Shown piece after piece: positions 76 through 45,992 of a stretch of 46,884 nt of DNA. The DNA is from a virus (lineage: Duplodnaviria > Caudoviricetes). Where the stretch lies: IMG/VR virus record IMGVR_UViG_3300037424_002473, positions 1 through 46,884 of that record. The stretch is one strand, 5' to 3'. How positions within the stretch are numbered: position 1 is the first letter of the stretch; each line of letters opens with the position of its first letter. Under the pieces are notes generated by a model. That model was given only the letters and a program-made list of their open reading frames with translations. It ran no database searches and had not been told where the DNA came from. The position numbers and the translations under genes are program-made.

Positions 76-209
76 CCGTAACAAGCCATCAAAAAAAATT
101 GCGGGGGTTTGGCAATTCTCAAACTTATTGCTATCTTCAAACTTTATTAACGGGTGATACCGAAACAGGGCGAAAATCCCGCACTTTTTTTATGGCTGAA
201 CCGTTAGCG
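76..209 (+). repeat. attC-like cassette recombination site 1 (134 bp)
   Basis: CCGTAAC ... GTTAGCG termini; internal inverted arms AGCCAT-C-A8-TTGCGGG / CCCGCAC-T7-ATGGCT; near-identical to 962-1095. Confidence 0.8.
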
Positions 210-1089
210 GTAATTAATATTATTTAAATAACCTTTTGTGTTGGTTGTTAGATTGATAAATAAAATATTTAAATAAAAACCTATGATAATTGCAACTTTC
301 TTTGAGACTACTTTTACAGAAGTACTTGGATTATTTTTTAGCTTTTTGACACTAATATTTGCTTTTTTTATCTATAGAAACTTTGATCTAAAGAAGACTC
401 ATAAGAATAAGCAACTTGACACATTACTTGAATTGATACAGGAGATAAATAATACATTAGTTTCTGTGCATTTCTGTAGTAAAATTCCTGAATATGTATT
501 ATCAAAACATCCAGACTTAGCTAAAAAGAGCAAAGTGACATTTGATACATGGTATTTTTCATTATTCAGAATTGGAATAGTTGTTAATGAAAAGCCAAAA
601 TATGAAAGAGTCTTTTTAACTGAAAATATCATGGAAACGTTTCCATTTCTTTCATATATTAATAATCCTCTTATACCAAAATCTATTGCTAATCGATTAA
701 ATAATTTCTATTCTCCTTTTGTAAATTTTTGCTCAATAGAAAATGCACCTGAAAAGCATGTAATTATTGAACTAAGAAATGAGCTAAATAAAAAAGCAAT
801 GTATCAATACCCTGACTATATTGATGCTTTTAAAAGTTGGGATAGTTTTATTAAATGTGCAAGCGAATTAAAAGTTGAAATCGAAAAATGGTTAAAGAAA
901 TATGGTTCTAAAGACATAAATTTTAATCTGTATTTACAAGACAAAAAATAATATTAACAACCGCTAACAAGCCATCAGAAAAAATTGCGGGGGTTTGGCA
1001 ATTCTCAAACTTATTACTATCTTCAAACTTTATTAACGGGTGATACCGAAACAGGGCGGAATTCCCGCACTTTTTCTATGGCTGAACCG
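204..1089 (+). mobile_element. gene cassette A (single ORF)
   Basis: Starts (G)TTAGCGG; its own site begins CCGCTAAC (961-968), the exact reverse complement, as expected for an integrated circular cassette. Confidence 0.75.
283..951 (+). CDS. hypothetical protein with N-terminal transmembrane helix (cassette gene)
   Basis: 222 aa ORF filling the cassette; hydrophobic segment LGLFFSFLTLIFAFFIY. Confidence 0.75.
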   Translation: MIIATFFETTFTEVLGLFFSFLTLIFAFFIYRNFDLKKTHKNKQLDTLLELIQEINNTLVSVHFCSKIPEYVLSKHPDLAKKSKVTFDTWYFSLFRIGIVVNEKPKYERVFLTENIMETFPFLSYINNPLIPKSIANRLNNFYSPFVNFCSIENAPEKHVIIELRNELNKKAMYQYPDYIDAFKSWDSFIKCASELKVEIEKWLKKYGSKDINFNLYLQDKK

Positions 1090-1095
1090 TTATAG
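962..1095 (+). repeat. attC-like site 2 (134 bp)
   Basis: CGCTAAC ... GTTATAG; only a few differences from site 1. Confidence 0.8.
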
Positions 1096-1248
1096 GGCAT
1101 TTTATCAAAAGTACGAAAGAGACTAATGCAATATTAACACAATATACCAAACCAATTTTGGGCAGAAAAATTCCAACCAATTAGCAAAAATTTCATACTT
1201 AAAGAGTAATGCATTGCTATAACAATGGTAAAGCTATTGGATATTTGT

Positions 1249-1291
1249 AAAAAACAGTACCAAAATATTCATATTTTCGATACTGTTTTTT
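1249..1291. terminator. bidirectional intrinsic terminator-like hairpin
   Basis: AAAAAACAGTA ... TACTGTTTTTT; probably the original terminator of the minus-strand RiPP operon. Confidence 0.55.
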
Positions 1292-1787
1292 ATAATGTGC
1301 AGAAAATTATAAGGGTAATATCTAATAGTAATAATATTTTGCCCGAAAAAAAATTATTATATACTTGATTATATCTATTGTTGAGCTATTTTTGCGCTCA
1401 AATTTAATGCAAAACGAGAAGTAAAAAAAATATCATAGTGTATCATTATCTTACCATTTAAGTATCACTTTACGAAAGAACGTATATTATTTTTACCACA
1501 TACACCGTAATATTTCATTTTAACACTCGTTACTTAGCGATCTAACTATGTGCTATAATAGTTAGTATTTTTTTAAAAGTGTGTGACAGTTGAGCTATAA
1601 CTAGCAATGTTATAAGCATGGTATTGTATTGCACATACTTTACGTACTATACTGTATAACATTACTTTGCATTATACTCAAAAACCAAAAGATGTGTGAC
1701 AACATGAATTTGAAAGGGCTATAACTGTAGTAGTTACCTGTGGAATCTTATCTGTAATTTTCTGTGGGCTGTACTATATCTGCTAAA

Positions 1788-2243
1788 TTATGCGGAGTTG
1801 CGTTTGCGAGATGCTTCATACTCGGCGTTTTTGTGTAAGGCTTCTTTTAGCATTTCTCTACAATCTAATTTATCATTTCTTAAATCTGTAACCTGCTGTG
1901 TTAGTATCTTTACCTGTTCCTTTAGAGAATCTATTATACGCTCTTTTTCTAAACAATGACTACACTCTCCTGGTGTTTCTTCTAATTGTATATTTTTAGA
2001 ATTTACCTTAACATTTATGTTATCATTTAGGTTAACATTTAGGTTAACATCATCAGATGTAAAATACTCAAAAGAAATATTAAATATACGTATAAATTTT
2101 ATTATTAAATCAAGTGAAGGTTGTATTTTACCACTCTCTATTTGAGAAATAGGGGATTGTTTTATATTCAACTTCTCCGCTAATTGAGCTTGTGTTAGTC
2201 CAAAATGCTTTCGTAACTCCCTTATTTTCTTACTAAAGTCCAT
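1788..2243 (-). CDS. XRE-family HTH prophage repressor
   Basis: IRELRKHFGLTQAQLAEKLNIKQSPISQIESG HTH; C-terminal coiled coil; at left end, divergent from early operon. Confidence 0.85.
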   Translation of the reverse strand: MDFSKKIRELRKHFGLTQAQLAEKLNIKQSPISQIESGKIQPSLDLIIKFIRIFNISFEYFTSDDVNLNVNLNDNINVKVNSKNIQLEETPGECSHCLEKERIIDSLKEQVKILTQQVTDLRNDKLDCREMLKEALHKNAEYEASRKRNSA

Positions 2244-2269
2244 AAAATATTAAAATTCCTTATAAATAA

Positions 2270-2301
2270 TTTGGATAATATACGTATTGCGTATATATTT
2301 G
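2270..2301 (+). promoter_or_regulatory. early promoter with overlapping palindromic operator
   Basis: TTTG (2270-2273)-N20-TATATTTG (2294-2301) matches the Bacteroidota consensus; ATATACG-N5-CGTATAT at 2278-2296. Confidence 0.7.
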
Positions 2302-2323
2302 TCATTAAAAATTAACCAAATTT

Positions 2324-2563
2324 ATGAGTAATAATTTGAAAAAACAATATCGGGGAAAAAGATGGCCTACAACACCGATGGTTGTGGCAGAGATTTGCGG
2401 ATTCTCAAAAGAGCATGTAAGCCGCATTATGAATGGCAAAGTTAAGAAAGATCGCAACCAGGTTGTTAGGGAGAACTATTTATTCAGGCAACATGTAGAT
2501 CAATACATCAAGACCCGAAAAGCAGAAAAACAATTAGAAATCGAAAGGAACCGCTTGGGGTAA
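2324..2563 (+). CDS. Cro/Ner-like small DNA-binding protein
   Basis: VAEICGFSKEHVSRIMNG HTH; position opposite the repressor. Confidence 0.7.
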   Translation: MSNNLKKQYRGKRWPTTPMVVAEICGFSKEHVSRIMNGKVKKDRNQVVRENYLFRQHVDQYIKTRKAEKQLEIERNRLG

Positions 2564-2588
2564 TGTTGTCACACACACTTTCAAAGCA

Positions 2589-2637
2589 TCCCGGAAAAAG
2601 GCATGATGCTGCCCGATCGAATCGGGCTCCGGGAACT
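2589..2637 (+). ncRNA. tRNA-like mini-structure (not a tRNA)
   Basis: 7-bp closing stem TCCCGGA/TCCGGGA, small GCAT/ATGC hairpin, 5-bp stem with 7-nt loop ATCGAAT. Confidence 0.45.
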
Positions 2638-3064
2638 AAATAGAACCAATTAAAATTTGCACAAGAAACAGAATAACAGATAAACAAAATGAGAACACGC
2701 AAACGAACTCTGACAAAGAAAAGATTACACGTTTACCTTCGAAAACTGGTTCGATTTTTTGGTTACTCTCAAGTGCTGTTCTTATACTTTCCTCAAAGCG
2801 TTTCGAAGTTTTGCTTTGATAAAACAATGACTGATATGAGACGAAAATCCCTGAAAGGATACTCAGTGCAAGTAATGCTATGGCCAAAATATATAGATGA
2901 GATAAGGTTTGGTTGTTATTATTGTAAAAAGCAACAAGAATACCAAAAACCGTTGTTGCAACAAACACTAAACTCCTGTACCATTCTGATTTATTTACTA
3001 TGTATTGGTTCTTTAGATCAGCACTTTTACTTAGGTTGTCTTCATAGTATTTTAAATTATTCAT
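2636..3064 (-). CDS. membrane protein (3 predicted TM), antisense moron
   Basis: ATG start, three hydrophobic segments, TAACTTCG -7-like box upstream (3099-3106, minus strand). Confidence 0.7.
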   Translation of the reverse strand: MNNLKYYEDNLSKSADLKNQYIVNKSEWYRSLVFVATTVFGILVAFYNNNNQTLSHLYILAIALLALSILSGIFVSYQSLFYQSKTSKRFEESIRTALESNQKIEPVFEGKRVIFSLSEFVCVFSFCLSVILFLVQILIGSI

Positions 3065-3177
3065 AACAACAATTTTATAGGTTAAACAATGGAAACCCCG
3101 AAGTTAATAAAAAAACTTGTAAGCCTTAAACATCGGAACAGGCCGGGGAGCAAACAGATAATTAATTTTTACGAAAT

Positions 3178-3402
3178 ATGAATTTGAAAACTCTTTTAAC
3201 AAATACCCTGGCTTTTCTTCTGTTAAGCCTTATGTATGATAAGATATGCAGCTTTTTAGCAATAGAACTCAATATTATTAATATGAAAGTTCCTATTGCT
3301 CCCCTTAACAAGGCTAACATCATTCCTTTAATTGTAGGGTTTATTTCAATGAGTATCATAGTTTATTATTTAAGAAAATCAAAGGTAAAAAAACAATTAT
3401 AA
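3178..3402 (+). CDS. small 2-TM hypothetical protein
   Basis: 74 aa, two hydrophobic segments, ends 9 bp before the transposase. Confidence 0.5.
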   Translation: MNLKTLLTNTLAFLLLSLMYDKICSFLAIELNIINMKVPIAPLNKANIIPLIVGFISMSIIVYYLRKSKVKKQL

Positions 3403-3411
3403 ACCGTAACA

Positions 3412-5730
3412 GTGCCAGTACTTATAAACGACATATTATTTATTGAAGGCAGAAAGCTTGTAAAGAAGAGAATTATATCAAGTGGAAGTTTAAGAGTTGA
3501 GCTTACTAGGCAACGAAATGGGAAATTACAGTGCTGGAGGTATGAACGTTTTACACATAATTATCCTGATGAATTTATACAACATCGAATTGATAGCCGA
3601 AAAGGAGTGGTATATTTTTACTTCGAAAGCCTGCGAGATAAATACAAAGAAGCAATCAAGGATAAATTATGCAAAGGACATGATCCTTATTTATATGCAG
3701 TAAACAAGAATGAGATATTAAAACAAGAGCGCAACGAGCAGTCTCGAAGATTAAGGCTAGACTTACAAGCTCGTGAACTGGAACTACGCAAAGAAGATTA
3801 CACCAACGAACTACCAAAACTTATTAAAATCAGTTATTCAGATGAAAATTACCTGATACAAAATGGTTTATCGGTAAAAGAAGCCGGGCAAATGGCTCGT
3901 ACTTGCGGATGGCTTGATTTATTGGCTGCTATGAAACCTAAAAAAGCTCGTGAGTTTGGCTTTGAAAATATGCCTGCTTTCCGTGAGTATGTTTTTAATA
4001 CAATGGCATCGGAGTTTAAACAAGGTTTAATCAAGTTTAAAGATGGTATGCCGAGTAATATTCAAATCTTAGGACGTTACGAACGTGATTGGAAAGATAA
4101 TGGCCCTAAATGTATGCTAACAGGCCGTAGAGGAAATACAAACCGTTCAATTATTGGTAAATCTACCGATAATGAAGTACTAATGGTAGGCCGTTACAAT
4201 ATAAAAGAATGGCATGCAGCTACTATCATAACGATATATACTAACCCGGGAGATTCACGCAAGTTTGATAAAGAAGAAACATACCGCCGATATAAACGCC
4301 AATGCGAAAAAGCAGATAAACGTCCTGCAAGTATAGGTGCAATGAAGCGATTCTTAAACGATCAGGCAGTTAATGTATTCTGCATGGGTGAGCGTGACGG
4401 TTATAAGGAACTTGATAAACTTATGCCTTCGGTTCGAAGAGAAAAGCCTAAAATGTCGCTTATTAAAGGTGGTTTTGATGGATTCCAGGTTGATTTTTAC
4501 AGCGAAATTGATGGAGCAAATATTATGCTAACCGTGGAGGCTCTGTTTGATTATTCGAGCGATGCCATTACAGGTTTTGATATAGGACTTGTTGAAAATG
4601 GTTTAATGGTTCGCAATATGCTACGTTCGCATTTTGCATTAAACGATAACCGTGGATTTATAGAACTGGAGTCGGATCGTGGAACAACAAACTTAAGCGC
4701 AGCCAGTAAATCAATTATCAATCGTTGTTGTGGCACTTTTAAAGCTCCTGCACCAAATTGGCCAGTGAATGTTCCTGGAAAGAAAAAGCCATCGAATCCA
4801 AAAGGAAGGCGTGTAGAGCGAATTGTAAGGGAAGTTAACCGTATTGCTCAAAATATGGAAGGATGGAAAGGCGGTAACGTTAAATCGGTGCGAAGTAACA
4901 TGGAACCAAATCCTGATTATAAATTAAATAATCTTCCAAAAGGATTAGAAGCGGCCAAACAAGCTGTTATTTCACTCATCAATGCTTACAATCACGAAAA
5001 ATTAAAGAATGGTGCAAGCCGTTGGGATAATTATATTAACAATATTAATACCGATGCTCCTGTAATATTGCCATTACAACAAAGCCTAATACTTAACGAG
5101 TGGAGCATTACAACAGTACGTGCCGGATTGGTATCGGTTGAGCTGGATAAAGAAACATACGAGTTTGATTTCTGGAATTACCTTGATTATGCACATAAAT
5201 TAAATAAAGGTTTTAAATGCCGTGTGAGCTTTGATCCACAGCGAGCCGATAAAGCTTTGATTTTTGCTTTTGACGAAAAAGACAGGAATAATACAGAAAA
5301 AGACAGGTTTGTATGCGAAATAACCAAACTTAAACGAGTAAAAGAAGCTCTTTATGAGCAAACAGATGATGATCGTAAAGAGCTTGGTCGCCAACATTCA
5401 AACAGAAATAAGGTCATTTTATCACAACATAGAAAATACTTAGAATTACAGGCATCGAAAATGGACTTAGACATAGGTGATATGGACATTAAAGACGCTC
5501 AAAAAATTGTTAGCGGAGCACTTTTAAGCGAAGGAATTGATTGTATTGAAAGTTTTACCGAGAGATTTGGTACTCCGTTAAATTCTAAGGAAGCAAAACG
5601 CCAGGAAGAGTTTTACAAAGAGATGTTATTGCCAGGGATTAATATTCCGGTGCGAAGTTTACCTGCAGAAAACAACGAGTCTGAAAAGCGCAAACATCAA
5701 CGAAAGAAATTTGCAAAAAAAGCAATATAA
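3412..5730 (+). CDS. MuA-like DDE transposase
   Basis: Candidate triad GFDG ... ESDRG ... KGRRVER; followed by AAA ATPase; GTG start. Confidence 0.8.
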   Translation: MPVLINDILFIEGRKLVKKRIISSGSLRVELTRQRNGKLQCWRYERFTHNYPDEFIQHRIDSRKGVVYFYFESLRDKYKEAIKDKLCKGHDPYLYAVNKNEILKQERNEQSRRLRLDLQARELELRKEDYTNELPKLIKISYSDENYLIQNGLSVKEAGQMARTCGWLDLLAAMKPKKAREFGFENMPAFREYVFNTMASEFKQGLIKFKDGMPSNIQILGRYERDWKDNGPKCMLTGRRGNTNRSIIGKSTDNEVLMVGRYNIKEWHAATIITIYTNPGDSRKFDKEETYRRYKRQCEKADKRPASIGAMKRFLNDQAVNVFCMGERDGYKELDKLMPSVRREKPKMSLIKGGFDGFQVDFYSEIDGANIMLTVEALFDYSSDAITGFDIGLVENGLMVRNMLRSHFALNDNRGFIELESDRGTTNLSAASKSIINRCCGTFKAPAPNWPVNVPGKKKPSNPKGRRVERIVREVNRIAQNMEGWKGGNVKSVRSNMEPNPDYKLNNLPKGLEAAKQAVISLINAYNHEKLKNGASRWDNYINNINTDAPVILPLQQSLILNEWSITTVRAGLVSVELDKETYEFDFWNYLDYAHKLNKGFKCRVSFDPQRADKALIFAFDEKDRNNTEKDRFVCEITKLKRVKEALYEQTDDDRKELGRQHSNRNKVILSQHRKYLELQASKMDLDIGDMDIKDAQKIVSGALLSEGIDCIESFTERFGTPLNSKEAKRQEEFYKEMLLPGINIPVRSLPAENNESEKRKHQRKKFAKKAI

Positions 5731-5748
5731 AAAACGGCTGCCATTGGC

Positions 5749-6777
5749 ATGGCAACCGCTAAAATTAATACTAATACTAATTTTAAATTAAAAGCTATGA
5801 CAAAAGTAAGTATTACAAATCCTTTAACATCAGAAACAAAGGAAAAAATTGTTTTAACTGTTGAAAATTACATTGAAAACCGCAAAGGAACAGCCGGATT
5901 TTTGGTTGACAACTTCTTAAAATCGGTTGAAGGCGTAAACAAAACAGATTGGAGTTATATGCGCAATCGTAACTGGGATAAAGTACGTACGGTAAGATCT
6001 GGAAAAGAAGTATTATCGAGTGTTAAAGATATTAAGTTTTTAAATCTTGGAAGAGCTGTAGGGTTGGAATTTGAAGGCGATTATTGGCAACACTTTAATA
6101 CAGACAATTACATGATGATATGTAATGTGATCAGTGAAGCCAGGACACGTAAAATACCTTATTGTATTGATGGTGATACCGGACAAGGTAAAACATACAG
6201 CATTTCACGCTATCACCAGGAACGTTCGGCAGATACTTTTGTGGTACGATGTGCAGGTGATATGAGCGTGAAAGATTTTATTGTTGAAGTTGCTGAAGCT
6301 GTAGGTTGCGAAGCTGTTGGAAGTAAAGTTCAAGTACGAAAAAGAATTGTAAGGCATCTTTCCAAGAAAAATGATCCGGTATTAATTATTGATGAAGCCG
6401 AAAACTTAAAAGACGGTGCGTATGATGGTATTAAAGCCATGATGGATGATTTAAAAGGCATTTGCCCGATCGTTATTGTTGGAGCAAATGATTACCAGTC
6501 GAAGCTTCAGAAACTTGCCGAAAAGAAAAAGAAAAGCTTTCCACAGATATATTCAAGATTAAAAGAAGGTGGTTTTAACCGACTGTTTGAAATGGGACGT
6601 GAAGATGTAAGCGGTATTTGTAATGCTTTAAATATAAAAGATAAGAGCCTGATAGGATTATTAGCAAATTACTGTAGTAATATGAGAGAGTTATCGGGTA
6701 CTATAACCACATTGCTTAAAGAAGCTGATCAGGCAGGACGCCCTGTTGATTCTGCATTATTTAAAGCTATTATTTAA
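5749..6777 (+). CDS. MuB-like AAA+ ATPase (start possibly 5797)
   Basis: Walker A GDTGQGKT, Walker B LIIDEAE. Confidence 0.85.
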   Translation: MATAKINTNTNFKLKAMTKVSITNPLTSETKEKIVLTVENYIENRKGTAGFLVDNFLKSVEGVNKTDWSYMRNRNWDKVRTVRSGKEVLSSVKDIKFLNLGRAVGLEFEGDYWQHFNTDNYMMICNVISEARTRKIPYCIDGDTGQGKTYSISRYHQERSADTFVVRCAGDMSVKDFIVEVAEAVGCEAVGSKVQVRKRIVRHLSKKNDPVLIIDEAENLKDGAYDGIKAMMDDLKGICPIVIVGANDYQSKLQKLAEKKKKSFPQIYSRLKEGGFNRLFEMGREDVSGICNALNIKDKSLIGLLANYCSNMRELSGTITTLLKEADQAGRPVDSALFKAII

Positions 6778-6778
6778 G

Positions 6779-7027
6779 ATGGAGGTTGCTATGATTTTGG
6801 AAGAAAGCTATCCATTTACATGCCCTTCGTGTGGTAAAATTCAGAATGTATTAGTTAAAAATACAGACACTTCGATAAGTATTTATCATGCATGTATTGG
6901 CTGCAATGAATTATTACACCTTACTCCGAACGAAAACAGCTATATGGATGCTGAATTGTGGGCTAAGCACTTAAATAATGTAAGACAAAGGAATAAGGAC
7001 ATATTGTTTTTTGATGAATTAATTTAA
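6779..7027 (+). CDS. small Zn-ribbon protein
   Basis: CPSC ... CIGC; ATG right after the ATPase stop. Confidence 0.55.
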   Translation: MEVAMILEESYPFTCPSCGKIQNVLVKNTDTSISIYHACIGCNELLHLTPNENSYMDAELWAKHLNNVRQRNKDILFFDELI

Positions 7028-7032
7028 GCATT

Positions 7033-7446
7033 ATGACCACAGACACTACACATAAACAAGTTATTAAGCACAGAATGCAGGCCACTAAAGGTGAGATTTG
7101 TAAGCTTTTATGTTTGACACCTGATGCTTATGAAACCATGAGGTATGATTTAGCTATTGCATGGCTCGAATACCAGGGATATTTTGAAGTAACAGCCCGA
7201 ATATACATCCTGTCTAAAACATTCTTTAACTGGTGGTATCAGCGTTTATATACCATTGAATGCCAGTTTTTACAAAATTACTCCAGACGTTATAATGCCA
7301 ATGTTCTAAGGAATCAGTACATGAATCAGGCTTTGACATTAAAATTAAGGCCATCGAGAATAGTAATGGAAGCCATTAGAAACGAAGGTTTACAAGCGTT
7401 AGAACGAAATCCTAAATTAAAAACAACTAAAATATTTGCAGAATGA
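7033..7446 (+). CDS. phage early hypothetical protein
   Basis: Tightly packed co-directional ORF. Confidence 0.65.
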   Translation: MTTDTTHKQVIKHRMQATKGEICKLLCLTPDAYETMRYDLAIAWLEYQGYFEVTARIYILSKTFFNWWYQRLYTIECQFLQNYSRRYNANVLRNQYMNQALTLKLRPSRIVMEAIRNEGLQALERNPKLKTTKIFAE

Positions 7447-7691
7447 AAAAGCCAAATAGAGAAAGAGAACTTCTAGCTGAAATAAGGCTGCTTGAGACAA
7501 GAGCCGCAGAGCGTAAAACATATTGCATGAACAATATTGATGCTGCTAATTACGATGAAGTAAGCCGTGATTACCGGGCTGTAATGGTAAAGATAGAAGC
7601 TAAGAAACAGCAGCTTCGCCAACTAAATAGCTCTATAGATATTATGGAACAACATATACGAATAACACCAGGAATAAAATGTGTGCTGTAA
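7443..7691 (+). CDS. phage early hypothetical coiled-coil protein
   Basis: 4-bp overlap with upstream ORF. Confidence 0.6.
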   Translation: MKKPNRERELLAEIRLLETRAAERKTYCMNNIDAANYDEVSRDYRAVMVKIEAKKQQLRQLNSSIDIMEQHIRITPGIKCVL

Positions 7692-7873
7692 TAAAGAGGA
7701 AAACATTAAACTCTGTAGTTATATGCGAAGAATGCCAGGGAAAAGGTATTGTTTGGAAAAGAGAGTTTAAAGGACATACAGAAGGCTATGAAGCTACTCC
7801 TGAAACATGTCCTTTGTGTAAAGGGCATAAGGTTTTAAATCGAAAAGTAACCATTGAATTATTCACTATTTAA
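7679..7873 (+). CDS. DnaJ-type Zn-finger small protein
   Basis: CEECQGKG ... CPLCKG. Confidence 0.65.
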   Translation: MCAVIKRKTLNSVVICEECQGKGIVWKREFKGHTEGYEATPETCPLCKGHKVLNRKVTIELFTI

Positions 7874-7886
7874 ACACTATTTAAAC

Positions 7887-8546
7887 ATGATTGACATTGA
7901 AAAAATGACTCCTGAAGAACAGGACAGAGCTTTACAACAATTATTGGCTAAGAAAGAAGCCGAGAAAGCAAGAATAAAAGATGATCGCATTATTTATAAA
8001 GAACTTGCATCGAAAGCAGTTGACGAAATGTTTATTCCATTACAAAATGCCAGTAGTGCATTATCGGATTTGAAAAAGCTTGTATTTGACAATTTTGCCC
8101 ACATTATTGAGCTAAAAAAAGAGCTTTACGAAGTTAAGTCGGAACAACAAAGCCATACTTTTAGTAACGATGAAGGCACAAAGCGAATTACTATGGGGTA
8201 TCGGGTACTTGATCGTTACGATGATACTGCTGAAGCAGGTATTGCAAAAGTGCGTGAGTATATGGATAGCCTTGCTAGAGATGCTGATAGTGCAAAACTT
8301 GTAAATATGATTAACTCATTGCTTAAACGTGATCCGAAAGGTAATTTGAAAGCAAACCGAGTTCTTGAGTTGCAGAAACTTGCAGCCGAAAGTGATTCTG
8401 AGATTTTTAACGATGGAGTACAGATTATATCAGATGCTCATAAGCCCCAAAAATCAAGCGATTTTATTGAAGCTGATTGGAAAGATGCGCATGGTAAGTG
8501 GCATAGTGTTGCTTTAAGTATTTCAAGTGTAGATTTTCCTCAATAA
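7887..8546 (+). CDS. DUF3164-like Mu-phage early protein
   Basis: SHTF..RITMG..YDDTAEAGI pattern and position; ATG at 7887 preferred over the upstream TTG. Confidence 0.65.
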   Translation: MIDIEKMTPEEQDRALQQLLAKKEAEKARIKDDRIIYKELASKAVDEMFIPLQNASSALSDLKKLVFDNFAHIIELKKELYEVKSEQQSHTFSNDEGTKRITMGYRVLDRYDDTAEAGIAKVREYMDSLARDADSAKLVNMINSLLKRDPKGNLKANRVLELQKLAAESDSEIFNDGVQIISDAHKPQKSSDFIEADWKDAHGKWHSVALSISSVDFPQ

Positions 8547-8547
8547 A

Positions 8548-8589
8548 CCCGACTGGCAGTCCTCCCGGTTCGAGACCGGGACGGGAGCA
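8548..8589 (+). ncRNA. second tRNA-like mini-structure
   Basis: CCCG/CGGG closing stem, ACTG/CAGT hairpin, CCCGG-TTCGAGA-CCGGG T-arm mimic. Confidence 0.45.
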
Positions 8590-8632
8590 AATCAAGTAAA
8601 AAGATTAAAGTATCAAGATAAAAGCTGTAAAA

Positions 8633-9007
8633 ATGGAAGCTATCATAAAAGAAATTGAGAGAAAGAAAGCTGAATTATTAAAGTTAAATAAAAAACTCGA
8701 TGATGCCGGGAAAGCAAAGTATAATTTTTTGATTGGCAAATGCTACAGTCTTGCTGCCACGTGCAAAATAAAGGTGATTAATATCATGTCAATTGATGAA
8801 AGATATAACTCCATAAATATTGAATGTATTAGGATTCAGGGAGGAAAACATGATAAAGGCAGAATTGAAGTTGATATCAATGGAGATTACGACTTGAGTT
8901 TCTGTGACATTGATGAAAAATGTATAACTGAAATAAGTCAAGAGAAATTTATGGAGTTTCTTTTTGAAGCTCTGGAAGAAACCAGAAAAACTCTAGAAAA
9001 TATATAA
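8633..9007 (+). CDS. hypothetical protein
   Basis: ORF with A-rich leader in early operon. Confidence 0.6.
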   Translation: MEAIIKEIERKKAELLKLNKKLDDAGKAKYNFLIGKCYSLAATCKIKVINIMSIDERYNSINIECIRIQGGKHDKGRIEVDINGDYDLSFCDIDEKCITEISQEKFMEFLFEALEETRKTLENI

Positions 9008-9025
9008 AGAAATAATTCATTAGGC

Positions 9026-9250
9026 ATGGGAAAAGATTCAGGTTCTTTAGTTCGGTATATCGATAGCGATGGGCAGGTACGGCAAGGAATAGTTAAGCAT
9101 AGCGAACAGTCCGAAGAATTTAAAAAGTACAATAAAGTATTAATAAGACTACTAAACAACGATATGACGGTGAAAAAGGATGAGCATGGCAAGGAGATCG
9201 TTGTCTTAAAAGATAGCAGTAAAGTCATTATTACAGGATTTATAGATTAA
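9026..9250 (+). CDS. hypothetical protein
   Basis: Packed ORF in early operon. Confidence 0.6.
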   Translation: MGKDSGSLVRYIDSDGQVRQGIVKHSEQSEEFKKYNKVLIRLLNNDMTVKKDEHGKEIVVLKDSSKVIITGFID

Positions 9251-9255
9251 GCAAT

Positions 9256-10127: not shown

Positions 10128-10136
10128 TTAAAAATT

Positions 10137-11407: not shown

Positions 11408-11439
11408 TTTAATTAAAAATGAATAACTAATAATTAAAA

Positions 11440-34415: not shown

Positions 34416-34422
34416 ACACTGT

Positions 34423-35728: not shown

Positions 35729-35739
35729 AATTTTATTTT

Positions 35740-36761: not shown

Positions 36762-36766
36762 ATCTT

Positions 36767-38173: not shown

Positions 38174-38301
38174 AATTCTAAATTCAATATTTGGTTAATA
38201 ACATCATAAATATAGAAAATAATATTTACTTTCTGTACAAAAACTATTTGTAATATTTTTTTGTTGGTGGAGAAGGAAGAAAAATTAATCGTAAAAACGC
38301 C

Positions 38302-38435
38302 CTATAACATCGGGTCTTAAAGCATGCGGGGTGTATTTTAAGTTTGACAATTTTTGCTATATTTGTTTCAATGTCAACGGGTGACATTGAAACGCGGCGC
38401 GCTCCCGCCCGCTTCAAACCCGAAGAACGTTATAA
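38302..38435 (+). repeat. attC-like site 3 (134 bp)
   Basis: CTATAAC ... GTTATAA; arms TCGGGT..GCGGG / CCCGC..ACCCGA. Confidence 0.8.
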
Positions 38436-38747
38436 GCAAGGCGTCTAAAAAAAATCCGAATACTTCATCTCATCTTGACAAGTCAATAAATTAAATTAAC
38501 TTTTTTCCGGTTTGACACTGTTTTCAAGTTTGAAACTTTATTTCATTACTGACAATTAAAATATTATTTCTTTTCGTAATGGTTTGACAGTGTATTTTTC
38601 AGGATTGGTTCGGTAGGTATGACAGGTAAAAAATTAGTATCCCAACGCGCTTTGCAGCCTGACGGCTGCATTTGTGATTTATTAAAGCATATTTGCTTCG
38701 CAAAAAAGCTTTAATTAAAAAAGTTAGCGGCAAAAAAATAAAGCGTC

Positions 38748-39167
38748 TTAGGTTTCCAGTTCAGCTATCTGATTATTTAGATACACCAATTTTGACTGTT
38801 TTTCAATTGAGAATGTTTTGGATTCTTTGATAACAAATTCTAAGAGTAATAATGACTTTTTATAATACAAGAGACAGTCATTTAATTTTCTTTGAGCGTA
38901 TAATAATTCTGCTTGAGCATAAAAAAGTTCTGATAGGATTTCTAAATGACCATTAGTATAGTTATGTTCCTGAATAAGATTATCTGTCAATTTTGTTATT
39001 GGAATATTATTAAAAAATGTTGAATCTTGCTTCAATATATCATAATAAGCATTATCAATAGATTGAGACGCTTTTTGGAAATCACCTTTTTTGATTAGCC
39101 CTAATATTCCAGCGACTAATTCTGCAAGCATCTCAATCATTCTTAATATAAAATCTCTTTGATACAT
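38748..39167 (-). CDS. helical protein (DUF6483-like)
   Basis: MYQRDFILRMIE N-terminus; TPR-like helices. Confidence 0.6.
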   Translation of the reverse strand: MYQRDFILRMIEMLAELVAGILGLIKKGDFQKASQSIDNAYYDILKQDSTFFNNIPITKLTDNLIQEHNYTNGHLEILSELFYAQAELLYAQRKLNDCLLYYKKSLLLLEFVIKESKTFSIEKQSKLVYLNNQIAELET

Positions 39168-39817
39168 TATACCATTTCGGAGTTTAGTTCTTCAATTGAG
39201 TTATTCAAATCTGCTATGATTCCAGAAAACCTTTTATTAAAGTAATATTTTCCAATAAAAGGTAATGAAATAAGATAGCCAATAGAGAAAATTAAAACAT
39301 AACCTTGGAGACTATTAATATTAAAATTTGATAAACCTGTCTTATCATTGATTAATATATTTGCAAAAACTGTTAAAATTGCTAATGAAGCATATGTTAT
39401 TACAGATTCCCTTGTTGATATTTTTTCAAATTTGGTTTTAACCTTTTTCAACGAATCGAGAATAGAAGATGTATTATAAGATAAATAGAGCAACTTTAGT
39501 TTAGAATTAATGCTTACAGCTTTAAGCGCATAATAACTTATTACTAATACTAAGAAAACATAACCTTGTATAGGTAAACTATGATTTTTGTTATTCAAAT
39601 AAAGTGTAGCAAAAATTGCAATAACAAGCACAAGAATAGCAGTTGCGATATTTGTTAAATAATCAAATCTTAGTTTTTTAGATAGTTTTTCGATTGTTTT
39701 ACTACTTTTTAACTTAATAATTCGCTCTATATTTTCTTTAGCAATACTTTTATCAATGAGATTTTCATTTGACAATGTTTGCCATATTTTTTTTAGTTCA
39801 TTTGTTTCCATTTTCAA
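39167..39817 (-). CDS. 4-TM membrane protein, probable anti-sigma factor
   Basis: ELKKIWQ N-terminus; overlaps the sigma gene. Confidence 0.7.
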   Translation of the reverse strand: MKMETNELKKIWQTLSNENLIDKSIAKENIERIIKLKSSKTIEKLSKKLRFDYLTNIATAILVLVIAIFATLYLNNKNHSLPIQGYVFLVLVISYYALKAVSINSKLKLLYLSYNTSSILDSLKKVKTKFEKISTRESVITYASLAILTVFANILINDKTGLSNFNINSLQGYVLIFSIGYLISLPFIGKYYFNKRFSGIIADLNNSIEELNSEMV

Positions 39818-40286
39818 TTGAGTTTAAAATTAATGACTTGATTCTATTTATTTTAACACCAGTGTTACTTTCTGAAATACCCATGATTTCAGCAATTTCT
39901 TTATAACTGAATTCATCGAGATACAGAGTTATTATAGCTTTATCAATTTCAGACAATGTATTAATAGTTTGATAAAGCTTTTCTTGGTTTTCGCTTAATT
40001 CACTTTTTGAATCGGAGATTGTTATGGAATCGTTATACTCATATTTTACAAATTCAGGTTGAGTCTTTTCTTTTCTAATTATATCAATTGCAGAATTTAA
40101 ACAAACTCGAAACATCCATGTTGAAAATTTTGACTGATTATTAAAACTTGGAAAAGCTTTCCATAATTGAATAATTAGTTCTTGTTTATAGTCTTGCTTA
40201 TCAGCACGATTATTAAAATACAAACTACAAATTTTGTGAACTATACCTTGATTTTGATATAATAACTCTGTAAATTCTTTTTCCAT
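39798..40286 (-). CDS. ECF sigma-70 factor
   Basis: QELIIQLWKAF..F, FSTWMFRVCLN, SYKEIAEIMG; start MEKEF preferred. Confidence 0.9.
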   Translation of the reverse strand: MEKEFTELLYQNQGIVHKICSLYFNNRADKQDYKQELIIQLWKAFPSFNNQSKFSTWMFRVCLNSAIDIIRKEKTQPEFVKYEYNDSITISDSKSELSENQEKLYQTINTLSEIDKAIITLYLDEFSYKEIAEIMGISESNTGVKINRIKSLILNSIENGNK

Positions 40287-40602
40287 AATACATTGATTCA
40301 ATTTTGCCCTATAAGACGAAAATAAAAAAGGATTTCTTACAAGATAGTTAAGTTTTTTATTATTTCGCAAATAAATTCAGTGGTTAGCATTGATACATTT
40401 GTTGGATTTCTTGTAGGAAACTAATAATCCCAACCTAATTACAAACACATTGGCAAACCTTTTCGGGTTTACCAAAAAGTTTGCAATCCAACCCAATTTT
40501 GCCGTAACCGGCAATAAAAAATCCCAACCCAAATACTAATTTTTTAGCATTTCATGGATTGGTTTTTAACCAAACTGACAAGCACGGTAACTTACGCCCA
40601 GC

Positions 40603-40736
40603 TTATAACACGTGTTCAAGTTCAACGCGGGGTTTGGTAGTTTGCTGACTAAGTTTTATCTTAGTAAAGTTGTTCAACGGGGGACAATGAAACAAGGCGG
40701 AAACCCCGCGCTAAACTTAACACGGGACCGTTATAA
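40603..40736 (+). repeat. attC-like site 4 (134 bp)
   Basis: TTATAAC ... GTTATAA; arms CGTGTT-C-AAGTT..CGCGGGG / CCCCGCG..AACTTAACACG. Confidence 0.8.
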
Positions 40737-41182
40737 ATAAGCCGCTAAAAATTCTGTAAATCAAATAATTCTGTTTTTTGTAACTATAAAGTCTAAGAGT
40801 CTTTTTTTGCATTCTGACAGCTTTTGTAATTTAGAAAGGAATTTGCTTTCTGATAATGAAAGTATAATTTATTCGTGCTATTTGATACTGAATTTAGCGA
40901 GAATGGCTCGGTAAGTATGATAGAAAATTGTTTTAGTTTTTCCAACGCGCTTGCGCTCGTTGAGCGCATTTGGTTTTTTTTAATAATTTCAAAAACACTA
41001 AAAGCCAATTTCATTAACATATTTTCTATTAATTATTGTATTTCAATAAAAACTTATTATTTTTACGCTACACTTCGAGAACGAAAAAATTGTGATTTGA
41101 AAGGTAGTATTAAATAACAAATTAGTACTGAATATTTTATGTCAGAAATATAGGTGCTTTAATTTTCATAAATTAATATTAA

Positions 41183-43450
41183 ATGATTATGATTAAAAAA
41201 TTCACTATTCTATTTTATCTCCTAGTTTTATCTTTTGGATTGTTTTCTCAAGTTAAGGATGAAGAAATAGTTTTAAAAGACCAAAAAGGAAAACCAAGTT
41301 TAATTAAGTTTAAAGATACTAAGGTAAATTCAGATGAATTTGCTGTTAAATCTTTTCTAAAAACACAATTTGAATTATCGGTTAATGATAATTACAAATC
41401 AGAAGAAACAATTATTGAACAAGAATTTAAATCCGAAAAGTTTCAGCAATATTACCGAGGTATGAAAGTTGAGTATGGTATATTAAAAGTAGTTTCAAGG
41501 AACAATAAATTGAAAACTATAAATGGAAGACATGTTGAAATTAAGGAGATAAATACCATTCCAAAATTGACCGAAGAGGAAGCGTTAAAAATTGCTTTAG
41601 ATCATGTTGGAGCGGAGCGATATATGTGGCAAGATGAATCTAACGAACAGTTACTTAAGTCGGACCTAAATGATCAAAATGCCACTTATTATCCTATAGG
41701 TGAACTAGTAATAATTGAAAAGGATTTATTTGGCAAAAACTCAATTCCTGTTCTTGCATATAAATTTGACATCTACGCATCTTACCCTGTTAGTCGAAAC
41801 TATATTTATGTCAATGCAAATGATGGTGAAGTTGTTTTTCAAAATCCTATAATAAAAAATGTACAAGGAACAGCGAATACAAGATACTCAGGACAAAGAG
41901 ATATTGAAACACAATTATCTTCAAGTCAATATAGATTGAGAGACTACTCAAGGGGGAATGGTGTGGAAACATTCAATATGAACAATGGAACAAGTTATAG
42001 CAATGTATCTGATTTTGTTGATAACAACAATGATTGGACAGCAGCAGAGTACCATAATACAGATAAAGATGATGCAGCCTTAGATGCTCATTGGGGAGCG
42101 GAAATGACATATGATTATTTTTGGGTAAAGCATAGAAGGAATAGCTATAATGGTAGCGGGGCTGCTTTAAAAAATTATGTACACGCAAATCTGGTTGCAA
42201 TGGGGTATTCTTCAAATGATAATGCATTTTGGGATGGTCAAAGAATGACATATGGAGACGGCAGTTGGTTATGTGATGCTTTAACTAGTATTGATGTTGT
42301 AGCACATGAAATTGGACATGGTGTTTGCTCTCAAACCGCAAATTTGGCATACCAAAAGGAATCAGGAGCGATAAATGAGGGTTTAAGCGATATATGGGGA
42401 GCTATGGTAGAGTATTATGCAGCACCAGAAAAACAAACCTATCTAATTGGTGAAGATATCATGCTCACTGGCAATGCTATACGTTCTATGTCAAATCCTA
42501 ACATGTATTCCCAACCTGATACATATGGTGGTACAAATTGGGTTAATCAGGATGGTTGTACAGCAACTAGATATAATGATTATTGTGGAGTTCATACTAA
42601 TGGTGGAGTTTTAAACCATTGGTTTTTCATTTTAGCCGAAGGGCATAGTGGTACTAATGATATTGGTAATAGTTTTAACATATCTGGCGTTGGAAAAGAT
42701 CGGGCTGCAAAGATTGTATATAGGGCAGAAAGTATGTATTTCACATCGACAACTGATTTTAACCAAGCAAGAGAACTGACTATTCAAGCAGCAGATGATT
42801 TATATGGAGACAATTCTGACGTAGTTTATCATGTCGCTTATGCTTGGTATGCTGTTGGAGTTGGTTCACAACCAAGTCCAGTTTCTCATTATATACAAGG
42901 TCCAACGCAGTTAACACCAGGCTATTCAGCAATGTATTATATTAATCCATATCTTAATGCTACTAATTATGTTTGGACTATACCTTCAGGTTGTTCATAT
43001 AACTATTGTTGGGATATTACTCGGGGACAAGGAACGAGCAGTATCAGAATAAAAGCAGGTAAAATAGGACAACACGAAATAACATGTAAAATATATAACG
43101 GCAGTCAATATGTAACTTCACAATACATAACTGTAAATGTTCAGAATCCTTATGGAGGTGGAGGAAGTGGAGGCGGAAGTAGTGACCCTTGTGATGGTAC
43201 TGATCCAGATGATATTTTAAAAATAATTAACGGGGTTATTTATCCACCAGAACCATGCGATGAAAATACTATCATGTATGAATCAAACAGTTTTGTTCAT
43301 ATAGCCGTATATAATTTGATGGGACAAAAATTGAAGGAATCATATAAAGAACAACAATTTGATATTAAAGACCTTTCTTTAGGGATTTATTTAATTAGAG
43401 CAGAATTGAATAATGGTAATGTAATAACAGAAAAAATATTTAATGAATAA
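41183..43450 (+). CDS. M4 (thermolysin-family) metallopeptidase with propeptide and T9SS C-terminal domain
   Basis: Signal peptide, NAFWDG, HEIGH, NEGLSD, GVHTNG; C-terminal VYNLMGQ..GIYLI..K. Confidence 0.9.
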   Translation: MIMIKKFTILFYLLVLSFGLFSQVKDEEIVLKDQKGKPSLIKFKDTKVNSDEFAVKSFLKTQFELSVNDNYKSEETIIEQEFKSEKFQQYYRGMKVEYGILKVVSRNNKLKTINGRHVEIKEINTIPKLTEEEALKIALDHVGAERYMWQDESNEQLLKSDLNDQNATYYPIGELVIIEKDLFGKNSIPVLAYKFDIYASYPVSRNYIYVNANDGEVVFQNPIIKNVQGTANTRYSGQRDIETQLSSSQYRLRDYSRGNGVETFNMNNGTSYSNVSDFVDNNNDWTAAEYHNTDKDDAALDAHWGAEMTYDYFWVKHRRNSYNGSGAALKNYVHANLVAMGYSSNDNAFWDGQRMTYGDGSWLCDALTSIDVVAHEIGHGVCSQTANLAYQKESGAINEGLSDIWGAMVEYYAAPEKQTYLIGEDIMLTGNAIRSMSNPNMYSQPDTYGGTNWVNQDGCTATRYNDYCGVHTNGGVLNHWFFILAEGHSGTNDIGNSFNISGVGKDRAAKIVYRAESMYFTSTTDFNQARELTIQAADDLYGDNSDVVYHVAYAWYAVGVGSQPSPVSHYIQGPTQLTPGYSAMYYINPYLNATNYVWTIPSGCSYNYCWDITRGQGTSSIRIKAGKIGQHEITCKIYNGSQYVTSQYITVNVQNPYGGGGSGGGSSDPCDGTDPDDILKIINGVIYPPEPCDENTIMYESNSFVHIAVYNLMGQKLKESYKEQQFDIKDLSLGIYLIRAELNNGNVITEKIFNE

Positions 43451-43796
43451 AACTATGAAAAAAGTAATCTTTTTTTTAGCAATAAGCCTAATTTTAATTA
43501 GTTGTGATGACGATGAGTCTATTGCATCATATCCAGAATGTTTAGAATTTAGGATACAACAAGTTTTGGATAGTCCGCCTCAAATTCCAAGAGCTACTAT
43601 TGAGAAATATACGTATAAAGGTGAAACTGTATATTTATTTAATTCATTTATTCCAGATGCACCACAAGTTGTTTATGATGATAGTTGTAATATAATTTGC
43701 GAGTTTGGTGGTCTAACAGGGAATTTAAATGATAGTTGTCCAGATTATTGGGAAACAGCTATTTATTTAGAAACTGTATGGAAAGATAATAGATAA
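43443..43796 (+). CDS. lipoprotein (DUF6970-like)
   Basis: LISC lipobox; YTYKGETVY..CNIICEFGG. Confidence 0.7.
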   Translation: MNKTMKKVIFFLAISLILISCDDDESIASYPECLEFRIQQVLDSPPQIPRATIEKYTYKGETVYLFNSFIPDAPQVVYDDSCNIICEFGGLTGNLNDSCPDYWETAIYLETVWKDNR

Positions 43797-43944
43797 AACA
43801 ATTATATGAATATTTGATATTGTTATTTTACAGAATTTTGATAACTTATATCAAAATATAAAAAAATGAGTTGCCAAATAAATAGTTTACTGTTTAATAT
43901 TTAATATTTAAGTGCAGTTTAAATAGTTACTTTACAAATAATAG

Positions 43945-43986
43945 AAAGCTCTTTTGCGTTTTGTTTATAATGCAAAGAGCTTTTTT
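43945..43986 (+). terminator. intrinsic terminator
   Basis: AAAGCTCTTTTGC ... GCAAAGAGCTTT followed by T-run. Confidence 0.7.
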
Positions 43987-44088
43987 ATTGCCTTACAGGC
44001 AATTTGCAATCCCTTTTAAAAACTAAAACAATTTTGTGCTTCGTTGAAAATTATTACCAAACTGACAAGGTTTATGTTGCCGGCCAAT

Positions 44089-44222
44089 TTATAACACGGC
44101 ATCTTAAAACATGCGGGGTTTTGGTGGTTTTTTGACATTTTTAATTATCTTTAAACTTTACAACGGCGGATTGGAACGCTGGGCGGAAAACCCGCACGTT
44201 TCAAATGCCGAGACCGTTAGGC
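44089..44222 (+). repeat. attC-like site 5 (134 bp)
   Basis: TTATAAC ... GTTAGGC; arms CGGCAT..AAACATGCGGG / CCCGCACGTTT..ATGCCG. Confidence 0.8.
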
Positions 44223-44247
44223 TCCATAGCAAAAAAATCGCAACACG

Positions 44248-45000
44248 ATGAAAAGTAAATACTTATTTTTTGGAATTTTAATCTTATTAATTAGTTGTCA
44301 AAATAGCAATTTAGATAAGTTTACAGGAACGTATGTTGGATTGCTTCCTTGTAAGATAAAAGTGAATAAATCGGATACTTTGTACGAACTTGACTTTAAT
44401 GACAGAGTAATGGTAATTCAAAATAAATCAAGAAAACCTATTTATGACAATTTCGAATTGACAGACCTTTACTACTTTAAAATAGAAATCTTAAATGACA
44501 CTATTTCTGACAATTTGATTGGTAAAATTGAATTTGATATTGAGAATTATTTAAATGTATATGCAGACACACTTGACAGTTCATTTTATTATGTGGGAGA
44601 ATACATTTACAATGAATCTTTTATCAATAACATTTCAATCCAAAACAATTCTTTGAATTTTGAAATTTCATTATTCAGTTATGGAGAAAAACAAAAAGAT
44701 ATTAAAGCTGGAATTCTATTTACAGAAAATGAAAAGTTATTAAATATTGACACAAGCTTTATTGGGAAACTGCATGACAATAATAATCCACTTTTTGACT
44801 ATACAAAATCTGATAGATACTTTTATAAGCTTGTTCATTCAGACAAGGAAATTCATGATTACAAATTGCTATTTTATCAGAAGCAACGTGATAAATTAAG
44901 AGAAAAATTAAAGTCAGTTCAGCTTGACAATTTTGAAAAAAAGAAAGTTGAAAATTCAATTAAATATTTGACAAACCTGATAGATTTGTATGAAGAATAA
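44248..45000 (+). CDS. lipoprotein of unknown function (cassette E, 44217-45140)
   Basis: LISC lipobox; cassette ends GTTAGGCTC / GAGCCTAAC. Confidence 0.75.
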   Translation: MKSKYLFFGILILLISCQNSNLDKFTGTYVGLLPCKIKVNKSDTLYELDFNDRVMVIQNKSRKPIYDNFELTDLYYFKIEILNDTISDNLIGKIEFDIENYLNVYADTLDSSFYYVGEYIYNESFINNISIQNNSLNFEISLFSYGEKQKDIKAGILFTENEKLLNIDTSFIGKLHDNNNPLFDYTKSDRYFYKLVHSDKEIHDYKLLFYQKQRDKLREKLKSVQLDNFEKKKVENSIKYLTNLIDLYEE

Positions 45001-45011
45001 ATGCTACGAGA

Positions 45012-45146
45012 GCCTAACATCGGGTCTTAAAGCATGCGGGGTATAGTAAAAGTTTGACAATAATTGTTATATTTGTTTCAGTGTCAACGGGTGACACTGA
45101 AACGCCGCGGCCTCCCGCACGCTGTTAAACCCGAAGACCGTTACAC
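45012..45146 (+). repeat. attC-like site 6 (135 bp)
   Basis: GCCTAAC ... GTTACAC; close relative of site 3. Confidence 0.8.
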
Positions 45147-45159
45147 ATAATTTTTTAAT

Positions 45160-45849
45160 ATGAAAATCGTAGTTAAAGCTTTCTATTTTTTAGTCGTAAT
45201 TATCTTGACATCTTGTTCTGAAAAGAAAGTGGAATATTTTGAGAATGGTAATGTTCATTTTATTGAAAGGTATAATTCGAATGGACAATTAAATGGAAAG
45301 GTAAAATACTTTCATGAAAATGGTAAAGCTGCTTTTGAATGTAAATATCAAGCTGGAAAAAGAATAGGTCATGCAAAGTGGTTTTATGAGAATGGAAATG
45401 TTAAATTAATTGAACCTTATGAAAGTGGTTTAATCAATGGAATGGTAGAAACCTTTTCAGAAAGCGGTTATTTGACTGGACAATCATTGTTTAAATTTGG
45501 TGAAAAAATAGAAACTTTTAAAATTGACTCATTAGGCAATAGAATAAAGACTTTTGCCAGAGTGCACAAAGATAGTATTCCTACTTTTGATAATTTCGTT
45601 TTTAATGCTATTCCTAATTCTGATTCAATTAGTATTAATGACACATTATTGCTAAATATTGAATCTGACGGAATAGTTCCATATCAAATTGTTCCAACAG
45701 CTACTAATGGACAGTTAATTTATGACTGGATTGGCTTTCAACATAAATATATTCCAAGAAGCAAAGGAGAAACCTATCTTATTGTGACACTAATTTTGAA
45801 TGACAGTACAAAAGTCTTTATTGGGAATAAGAAAATTAAAGTATATTAA
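45160..45849 (+). CDS. MORN-variant repeat (YwqK-like) lipoprotein (cassette F, 45141-45986)
   Basis: LTSC lipobox; YFENG/YFHENG/FYENG repeats; cassette ends GTTACACAT / ATGTGTAAC. Confidence 0.75.
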   Translation: MKIVVKAFYFLVVIILTSCSEKKVEYFENGNVHFIERYNSNGQLNGKVKYFHENGKAAFECKYQAGKRIGHAKWFYENGNVKLIEPYESGLINGMVETFSESGYLTGQSLFKFGEKIETFKIDSLGNRIKTFARVHKDSIPTFDNFVFNAIPNSDSISINDTLLLNIESDGIVPYQIVPTATNGQLIYDWIGFQHKYIPRSKGETYLIVTLILNDSTKVFIGNKKIKVY

Positions 45850-45857
45850 AAAACAAT

Positions 45858-45992
45858 GTGTAACATCGGGTCAGCGTACATGCGGGGTTTTGGTGGTTTG
45901 CTGACAAAATATTATCTTAGTAAAGTTGTTCAACGGGTGATAATGAAACGCGGCGCAAACCCGCACGATACGCTACCCGAAGAACGTTATAA
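45858..45992 (+). repeat. attC-like site 7 (135 bp)
   Basis: GTGTAAC ... GTTATAA; arms TCGGGT-C-AGCGTA..TGCGGG / CCCGCA..TACGCTACCCGA. Confidence 0.8.

Follow-up and report, generated by a model that had tools for sequence, protein, structure and literature searches.

A fragment of an integron-like cassette array from Bacteroidota, probably served by a tyrosine recombinase outside the IntI family

Our analysis of a 46,884-nucleotide virus record (IMG/VR record IMGVR_UViG_3300037424_002473, Duplodnaviria; Caudoviricetes; the whole stretch is referred to here as the window) indicates that it is a fragment of an integron-like cassette array. The record is a single contig, and both ends of the array run off it. 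It is likely that the cassettes travel in circular form, moved by a dedicated tyrosine recombinase that is not an integron integrase of the IntI type and that would cut at G|TT within hairpins of single-stranded DNA, a reading to which we assign a probability of roughly 0.77. We observed a conserved site structure, a signature at the cassette ends, linkage of related arrays to a recombinase gene with an attI-like start, and relocation of a cassette.

The window carries seven attC-like sites, all on one strand, five of them 134 bp and two 135 bp long, counted from a 7-mer with AAC at its end to one that begins with GTT (Table 1). A preliminary description made from the letters of the window had noticed seven imperfect palindromes of this length, and we recovered all of them. 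No eighth site was found when a profile built from the sites was scanned across the window. For six window sites, the bottom strand folds into a long hairpin (z -2.3 to -5.8, 100 dinucleotide shuffles each). In an alignment of 45 diverse sites, the bottom-strand structure comprises three stems: an invariant one of 5 bp is followed by a 4-nt bulge and then by a stem of 6 bp, and a single unpaired base, in most cases G, separates this from the third; one wobble pair and the one-sided 4-nt bulge lie at the spacer. Pairing was seen in 87.7% of cells, compared with 40-45% in slid controls, a comparison in which the structure is favoured since it was drawn from the same alignment. Two-sided changes numbered 225, as opposed to 85 ± 7 after shuffling, in agreement with the earlier remark that the arms differ in sequence and still pair. 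By prediction and by covariation, the bottom-strand hairpin with its extrahelical G is kept in the structure.

This structure bears on a rival account, in which the same recombinase moves the same cassettes but uses double-stranded DNA or the 15-bp terminal inverted repeats, the hairpin serving RNA processing or cassette creation. We consider it rather improbable. The arms covary for pairing and not for sequence, the unpaired bases keep their positions, one of the strands is favoured by the wobble pairs, and a class C group II intron, described below, targets the bottom strand. Other evidence, given with the cassette ends and the enzyme, is more to its advantage.

A pattern derived from the seven window sites was scanned over 24 of the 64 parts of a species-genome collection. 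It returned 171 stretches representing 158 distinct loci, 145 of them from Bacteroidetes/Bacteroidota, four from Ignavibacteria or Chlorobi and nine from others. A covariance model of the family matched 78 of 151 genomes drawn across Bacteroidota, with only 22 candidates scored per genome, and many genomes in this sample carry scattered or single sites. A first pattern scan of viral sequences gave a single chance match inside a tail gene; a second pattern found nine viral contigs with single sites. A blastn search of plasmids with a Flavobacterium site produced no match. Together with the type IX secretion tail encoded in cassette 4, the distribution of the site family points to Bacteroidota as the host of the window, which is the setting proposed at the outset.

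The circular origin of the cassettes is indicated by their ends. The preliminary description stated that the first bases of all six complete cassettes are complementary to their own last bases, and this proved correct: the complementary runs in cassettes 1-6 measure 9, 10, 9, 9, 9 and 9 nt, and the remaining 43 cells of the 7x7 matrix of starts and ends give 4-8 nt. After a mismatch of 1-2 nt, a second complementary block of 4-7 nt follows in five of the six, the register being shifted in cassette 5. Across the family, 140 distinct adjacent site pairs were compared, and 105 have runs of at least 9 nt; the controls reach this length in 12 of 890 mismatched pairings inside arrays and in 3 of 140 comparisons of a site with its own downstream flank. 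A site that went undetected probably lies within some of the 35 failing pairs. Complementarity is almost always missing at position 11, where the bottom strand has a G-T pair, and returns at positions 12-15, with matches in 79-87%. The signature was also found in 54 of 61 cassettes in the array of one complete chromosome (G001). In all six window cassettes, the predicted circle junction folds 5-11 kcal/mol lower than the integrated site, and the bottom strand folds lower than the top. Class 1 cassettes have end complementarity of 7-11 nt too, and the first block is therefore not special. The second block is, with 1-2 of 5 matches in three class 1 cassettes; this comparison leaves out a cassette without an intact site, a mis-picked site and a cassette depending on the mis-pick. 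Terminal inverted repeats longer than those of the three class 1 cassettes would also suit a recombinase that acts on double strands.

The preliminary description placed a tyrosine recombinase outside the window. This holds in relatives, where the array starts at an attI-like motif behind such an enzyme; the window itself encodes none, and the enzyme is not an IntI. In two arrays (L038 and L071), a tyrosine recombinase gene lies upstream on the same strand. G001 encodes a single close homolog (1,398,554-1,399,657), located 2 kb before an array block of 133 kb that reaches to 1.53 Mb and holds 69 of the genome's 74 matches, 68 of them on the same strand. Among the 151 genomes, the recombinase was detected at E <= 1e-75 in 51. 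Sites were found in 43 of these and in 35 of the 100 others (Fisher p 6e-9, with kin not being independent). Within 1.5-kb flanks of the best 30 recombinase loci, a site was present in 11, always downstream and co-oriented, and none was found upstream.

Orientation and the array start were examined at 28 loci chosen for a nearby site. The recombinase is co-oriented with the array at 26 of them, and at 19 of these 26 the start of the first cassette matches 10-11 of 11 variable positions; 12 of the 19 matching starts lie 93-106 nt past the recombinase stop codon. The bases before the first crossover read TATAAACNA|GTT at 22 loci, four unclear ones having been left out, and the sequence there is not a half hairpin of the site family. 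Judged by its sequence, the array start in these relatives is an attI-like site, usually about 100 bp behind a same-strand recombinase. A variable inverted repeat of 40-60 nt often ends about 10 nt before the attI-like crossover (L166, L215, L216, L228, L038 and others). One first cassette, measured from the attI-like site, spans 7 kb (L038:2963-10128) and encodes a two-gene restriction-modification-like system on the minus strand. Another complete chromosome (G002) has dense arrays at 1.73-2.09 and 2.71-2.73 Mb and a recombinase gene at 3.28 Mb, with no site within the 20 kb examined around the gene.

The array-linked enzyme carries SAM_4 and catalytic domains. Its alignment to IntI4 breaks across the IntI insertion, and the spacing from KGxKxR to HxLRH is 63-67 residues, as opposed to 107 in three IntI. 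Scores of the linked enzymes with TIGR02249 reach 190-205 bits, in two pieces, where the cut-off is 265, and the XerC/XerD models give 160-185 bits where the cut-offs are about 330. The enzyme scores 140 bits against archaeal XerA and 135 bits against IntI4. Being as near to the one as to the other, and having no IntI insertion, it gives some support to the action on double-stranded DNA considered above. In a tree of 53 rows, eight Xer-type rows from the same set of genomes separate at 100/100, and the four IntI group as a long branch among the family members; the tree does not separate a nested from a sister placement.

The enzyme also has an extra N-terminal domain of about 75 residues with a conserved W-S and W, modelled with a predicted local distance difference test score (pLDDT) of 85. 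This domain had no match in Pfam and no Foldseek match at E <= 0.001. Its best fold matches are the N-terminus of T4 UvsW (Z 7.3), XPB (Z 6.8) and the HARP domain of SMARCAL1 (Z 4.8), the last of which ranked second in Foldseek with an E of 0.02. The HARP, UvsW-N and XPB-type folds are related to one another, and the modelled domain is likely HARP-like. Since the enzyme lacks the IntI insertion and has an additional N-terminal domain, the system is integron-like in its working and is not an IntI integron. Many homologs of the recombinase (P0033, P0039, P0051 and others) have 450-600 residues, compared with the 370 residues of the other form.

Another possibility is that the sites are divergent classical attC sites, in clusters of attC sites that have no integron integrase (CALIN), and are served in trans by an ordinary IntI while the upstream recombinase is a bystander. 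An AAC/GTT core, an extrahelical G and a long stem are shared with attC as the accessible part of PMC7439510 describes it, and a true IntI occurs in two related-phylum genomes with single sites. Nevertheless, G001 carries 74 sites and has no IntI above the cut-off, the attI-like motif lies at a fixed distance from a non-IntI enzyme, and the family's covariance model finds nothing significant in 169 kb around seven IntI loci (four class 1 integron regions and three others). We therefore regard service by an IntI in trans as very unlikely.

Traces of mobility were also detected. A cassette of 1,347 bp, from G|TT to AAC, is 100% identical in G001 and in a second genome (G005), with non-homologous neighbours on both sides, and G001 contains pairs of cassettes that are 99-100% identical at separate positions. 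On a Chryseobacterium plasmid (L180:16695-18551), a class C group II intron is inserted at GT|TA in the bottom strand of one site; attC-targeting introns insert likewise. An IS110 element adjoins another damaged site on this plasmid. The array of G001 (L161-L165) further contains about twelve cassettes of about 367 bp that are 70-100% alike and scattered. Cassettes 19, 45, 48 and 57 of this genome share an identical 1.36-kb element with two transposase-like open reading frames (ORFs), located about 20 nt after G|TT, which suggests that the element targets cassette starts.

A third alternative would see in the sites nothing but intergenic RNAs, or repeats resembling repetitive extragenic palindromes (REP) or miniature inverted-repeat transposable elements (MITE), such as Flavo-1 or similar, with no role in recombination. 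They are indeed structured, intergenic and abundant in Bacteroidota, and scattered or single in many genomes. No Rfam match was obtained, and the flank complementarity of successive sites, the relocation of identical cassettes and the attI-like start would all be left unexplained; of the alternatives, this one appears the most remote. The preliminary description had suggested that the sites might correspond to Flavo-1 (RF01705). This identity was rejected: at a threshold as loose as E <= 10 the model had no match in the window, and it found none in nine other loci. Flavo-1 is likewise a structured intergenic repeat of Bacteroidetes, but its model has 76 positions, it is dispersed on both strands and it does not match these sites. 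Of five array-bearing genomes, four lack it, G001 with its 74 sites among them, and the fifth, a Flavobacterium genome, has 39 dispersed matches, none of them at its array.

The likeness to sedentary chromosomal integrons, such as the super-integron of Vibrio, and to class 1 integrons extends to several features. Cassettes follow one another in tandem on the same strand and mostly hold one ORF (here with a median length of about 0.9 kb); the sites have an AAC...GTT core and a bottom-strand hairpin with an extrahelical G; the first site is not a hairpin and lies beside a tyrosine recombinase with SAM_4 and catalytic domains; class C introns use the sites as targets; and arrays can exceed 100 kb. 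The attC/cassette architecture that was claimed for the window thus stands as regards the tandem cassettes and the signature of circles, while the geometry of the sites departs from that of class 1 attC. A 4-nt one-sided bulge takes the place of a loop of roughly 5x5-6, and the extrahelical base is the 8th after AAC instead of the 9th (three class 1 sites). In contrast to class 1 cassettes, the ends pair over about 15 nt, and long cassettes have a conserved leader and trailer. The enzyme differs from that of IntI integrons in lacking the insertion, in its additional domain and in being co-oriented with the array. Integrons with an inverted integrase, known from Treponema, have a true IntI. By description, the enzyme can be likened to NCBIfam NF040815 (XerA/integron integrase) and to the 'Integron-like' subgroup of simple tyrosine recombinases (Smyshlyaev et al. 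2021), for whose insertion-less members the accessible part of PMC8138268 gives no sites, arrays or function. Taken together, these comparisons describe a system that works like an integron and lies outside the IntI integrons.

Surveys have found Bacteroidetes to be nearly free of integrons, according to the portion of PMC9024848 available to us, and the corresponding portions of PMC13700133 and PMC11523902 report none by IntegronFinder in Flavobacterium and Elizabethkingia genomes. Among the matches listed from element tables in the available portion of PMC4889954, the Bacteroidetes entry is Salinibacter In0. We found no description of the present system in the literature; subscription journals and bioRxiv supplements were outside our coverage, and a prior description is possible.

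Based upon these observations, we predict that the recombinase binds the bottom-strand hairpin and cuts it at G|TT, both the catalysis by this enzyme and the choice of strand being part of the proposal. The HARP-like N-terminal domain may help the enzyme to bind DNA that is branched or bulged, standing in for the absent IntI insertion. Cassettes would leave as circles, and only in circle form would the site become fully paired over about 15-16 bp beyond the crossover. New cassettes would then enter at the attI-like site beside the recombinase gene. In the window, a Mu-like phage would have transposed into cassette 2 at a later time.

A number of observations weigh against movement by such an enzyme. 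The support comes from footprints in sequences. No recombinase is encoded in the window. Eight of the 51 recombinase-positive genomes have no site, and 35 of the 78 site-positive genomes have no recombinase at E <= 1e-75. A site is absent inside 1.5 kb at 19 of the best 30 recombinase loci, and three other loci (L169, L229 and L230) likewise have a recombinase and no site. The enzyme is on the opposite strand at two of the 28 loci with a nearby site, and four of the 24 array-linked enzymes in the tree set have no full match to the N-terminal domain, for which the HARP fold scores are middling (Z under 8; Foldseek E 0.02). The IntI insertion, missing here, is held to be essential in the literature. 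Finally, the integrated site pairs over only about 5 bp outside the bulge, and excision may therefore be inefficient.

Sites of the family are also associated with resistance genes. At Empedobacter plasmid loci (L241:10566-12848, L241:17842-19172, L243:4374-5507 and L240:698-2030), the cargo that ends in a family site comprises marR-arr, lnu(H), tet(X2), an aminoglycoside phosphotransferase gene and a variant of tet(X3). These cassettes start with the complement of their own end in a run of 9-10 nt, which for tet(X3) is only partly the case. This signature and the terminal sites identify tet(X), lnu(H) and arr on the Empedobacter plasmids as cassettes of the present type. On an Acinetobacter plasmid (L178:4001-6170), tet(X3) is preceded by a 'xerD/tnpF' gene that belongs to the recombinase family and is truncated at its 5' end. 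The tet(X3) gene starts at the same G|TT in both hosts, behind the truncated recombinase in Acinetobacter and behind the arm of a site in Empedobacter, and in Acinetobacter it is followed by the first part of a family site. The truncated 'xerD' precedes tet(X3) in about 50 Acinetobacter plasmids. On a Klebsiella plasmid (L277:5001-6769), blaVEB-3 lies downstream of a truncated recombinase homolog encoded on the same strand, and the 13 bases in front of blaVEB-3 are those with which cassette 1 of the window begins; no site follows the gene in this stretch.

We can speculate on a wider role. Sites of one integron-like family occur in about half of the Bacteroidota genomes sampled, compared with the near-absence of integrons in surveys. 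Tentatively, and with somewhat less than even odds, they may represent a second, phylum-wide integron lineage of Bacteroidota that standard tools have missed, whose enzyme reads folded single-strand sites by means of a HARP-like branched-DNA domain and not the IntI insertion; this lineage may be the stock from which IntI arose and the first packager of tet(X) and other resistance genes, possibly blaVEB among them, into cassettes of which fragments later reached Proteobacteria. If the recombinase works as we propose, the IntI insertion is not the sole route to recombining folded single-strand sites, and the origin of integrons thereby becomes testable. The system would further account for the resistance genes that stand in rows in Flavobacteriales and for the 'xerD' of the ISCR2-xerD-tet(X3)-res unit, and would offer a simple model with which mobile cassettes could be mined in their thousands. 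The window, an ordinary-sized fragment with a prophage and without a recombinase, would yet lead to a phylum-wide system tied to resistance cassettes.

Table 1. Features of the 46,884-nucleotide window.
Feature	Coordinates	Strand	Remarks
attC-like site 1	76..209	+	134 bp; predicted crossover G|TT at 203/204
attC-like site 2	962..1095	+	134 bp; ~95% identity to site 1
attC-like site 3	38302..38435	+	134 bp
attC-like site 4	40603..40736	+	134 bp
attC-like site 5	44089..44222	+	134 bp
attC-like site 6	45012..45146	+	135 bp
attC-like site 7	45858..45992	+	135 bp
Cassette 1	204..1089	+	Site 2 and one 222-residue ORF at 283-951; ends pair over 9+7 nt
Cassette 2	1090..38429	+	37.3 kb; prophage and minus-strand radical S-adenosylmethionine (radical SAM) cluster; ends pair over 10+4 nt
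Mu-like transposable prophage	1580..34540		Approximate limits, set at a recurring GTGTGAC motif
Likely original cargo of cassette 2	35486..38173	-	NCBIfam scores all below cut-off
Cassette 3	38430..40730	+	Three minus-strand ORFs, one an extracytoplasmic function (ECF) sigma factor
Cassette 4	40731..44216	+	M4 peptidase with type IX secretion C-terminal domain; DUF6970 protein
Cassette 5	44217..45140	+	Single 250-residue ORF, no known family
Cassette 6	45141..45986	+	Single 229-residue ORF with MORN-variant repeats
Cassette 7, start only	45987..46758	+	ORF from 46007, interrupted by intron; own site beyond record
Group II intron 3' end (domains 5-6)	46759..46884	-	AGC triad; record ends inside intron

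Cassette 2 owes its length to a Mu-like prophage, which takes up 34 of 46 kb and lies inside this cassette; neither the prophage nor the nature of the record as a single-contig virus record had been mentioned in the preliminary description. The prophage encodes families of repressor, transposition ATPase, Mu portal, Mu F, terminase, sheath, tape measure and DNA methylase proteins, of which the transposition ATPase, Mu portal and Mu F identify it as Mu-like. The presumed transposase (772 residues) matched no Pfam or PHROG family. No convincing pair of TG...CA ends with a 5-bp target duplication was found at the approximate ends, and the actual ends could be as much as about 0.5-0.8 kb beyond these; related prophages matched the DNA methylase gene only, and comparison with them did not fix the ends. 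The match of the cassette ends across 37 kb shows that cassette 2 is one unit and the phage probably a later insertion.

The putative original cargo is encoded on the minus strand and consists of a radical SAM/SPASM maturase-like gene, a 117-residue ORF, a nucleotidyltransferase gene and a candidate precursor of 80 residues, in which a Cys-rich stretch follows a GG motif. By its gene content, this is a candidate cluster for a ribosomally synthesized and post-translationally modified peptide (RiPP). The radical SAM gene had no relative among the metagenome contigs searched, and a prophage-free version of cassette 2 was thus not seen.

The ORF of cassette 1 has no family in Pfam or NCBIfam. The group II intron that interrupts cassette 7 was considered as an attC-targeting class C intron and rejected because of its AGC triad and its insertion away from any site. 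Five public sequencing runs share part of the window between 38.2 and 46.75 kb, one of them probably its source and two with small shares. Whole window cassettes were not found elsewhere, matches being limited to leaders and trailers. The ORFs of cassette 3 are enclosed by a conserved leader of about 250 nt and a trailer of about 200 nt that also occur in unrelated long cassettes, and the leader of cassette 4 belongs to the same conserved family. These stretches (38430-38700, 40410-40609 and 40731-40960 in the window) are non-coding and enclose unrelated cargo in many arrays. They were present in 10 of 10 distinct cassettes whose main ORF is on the minus strand, and the cassettes that carry them measure 3-3.5 kb, compared with the median of 0.9 kb. 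Leader and trailer may reflect the way in which operons are captured.

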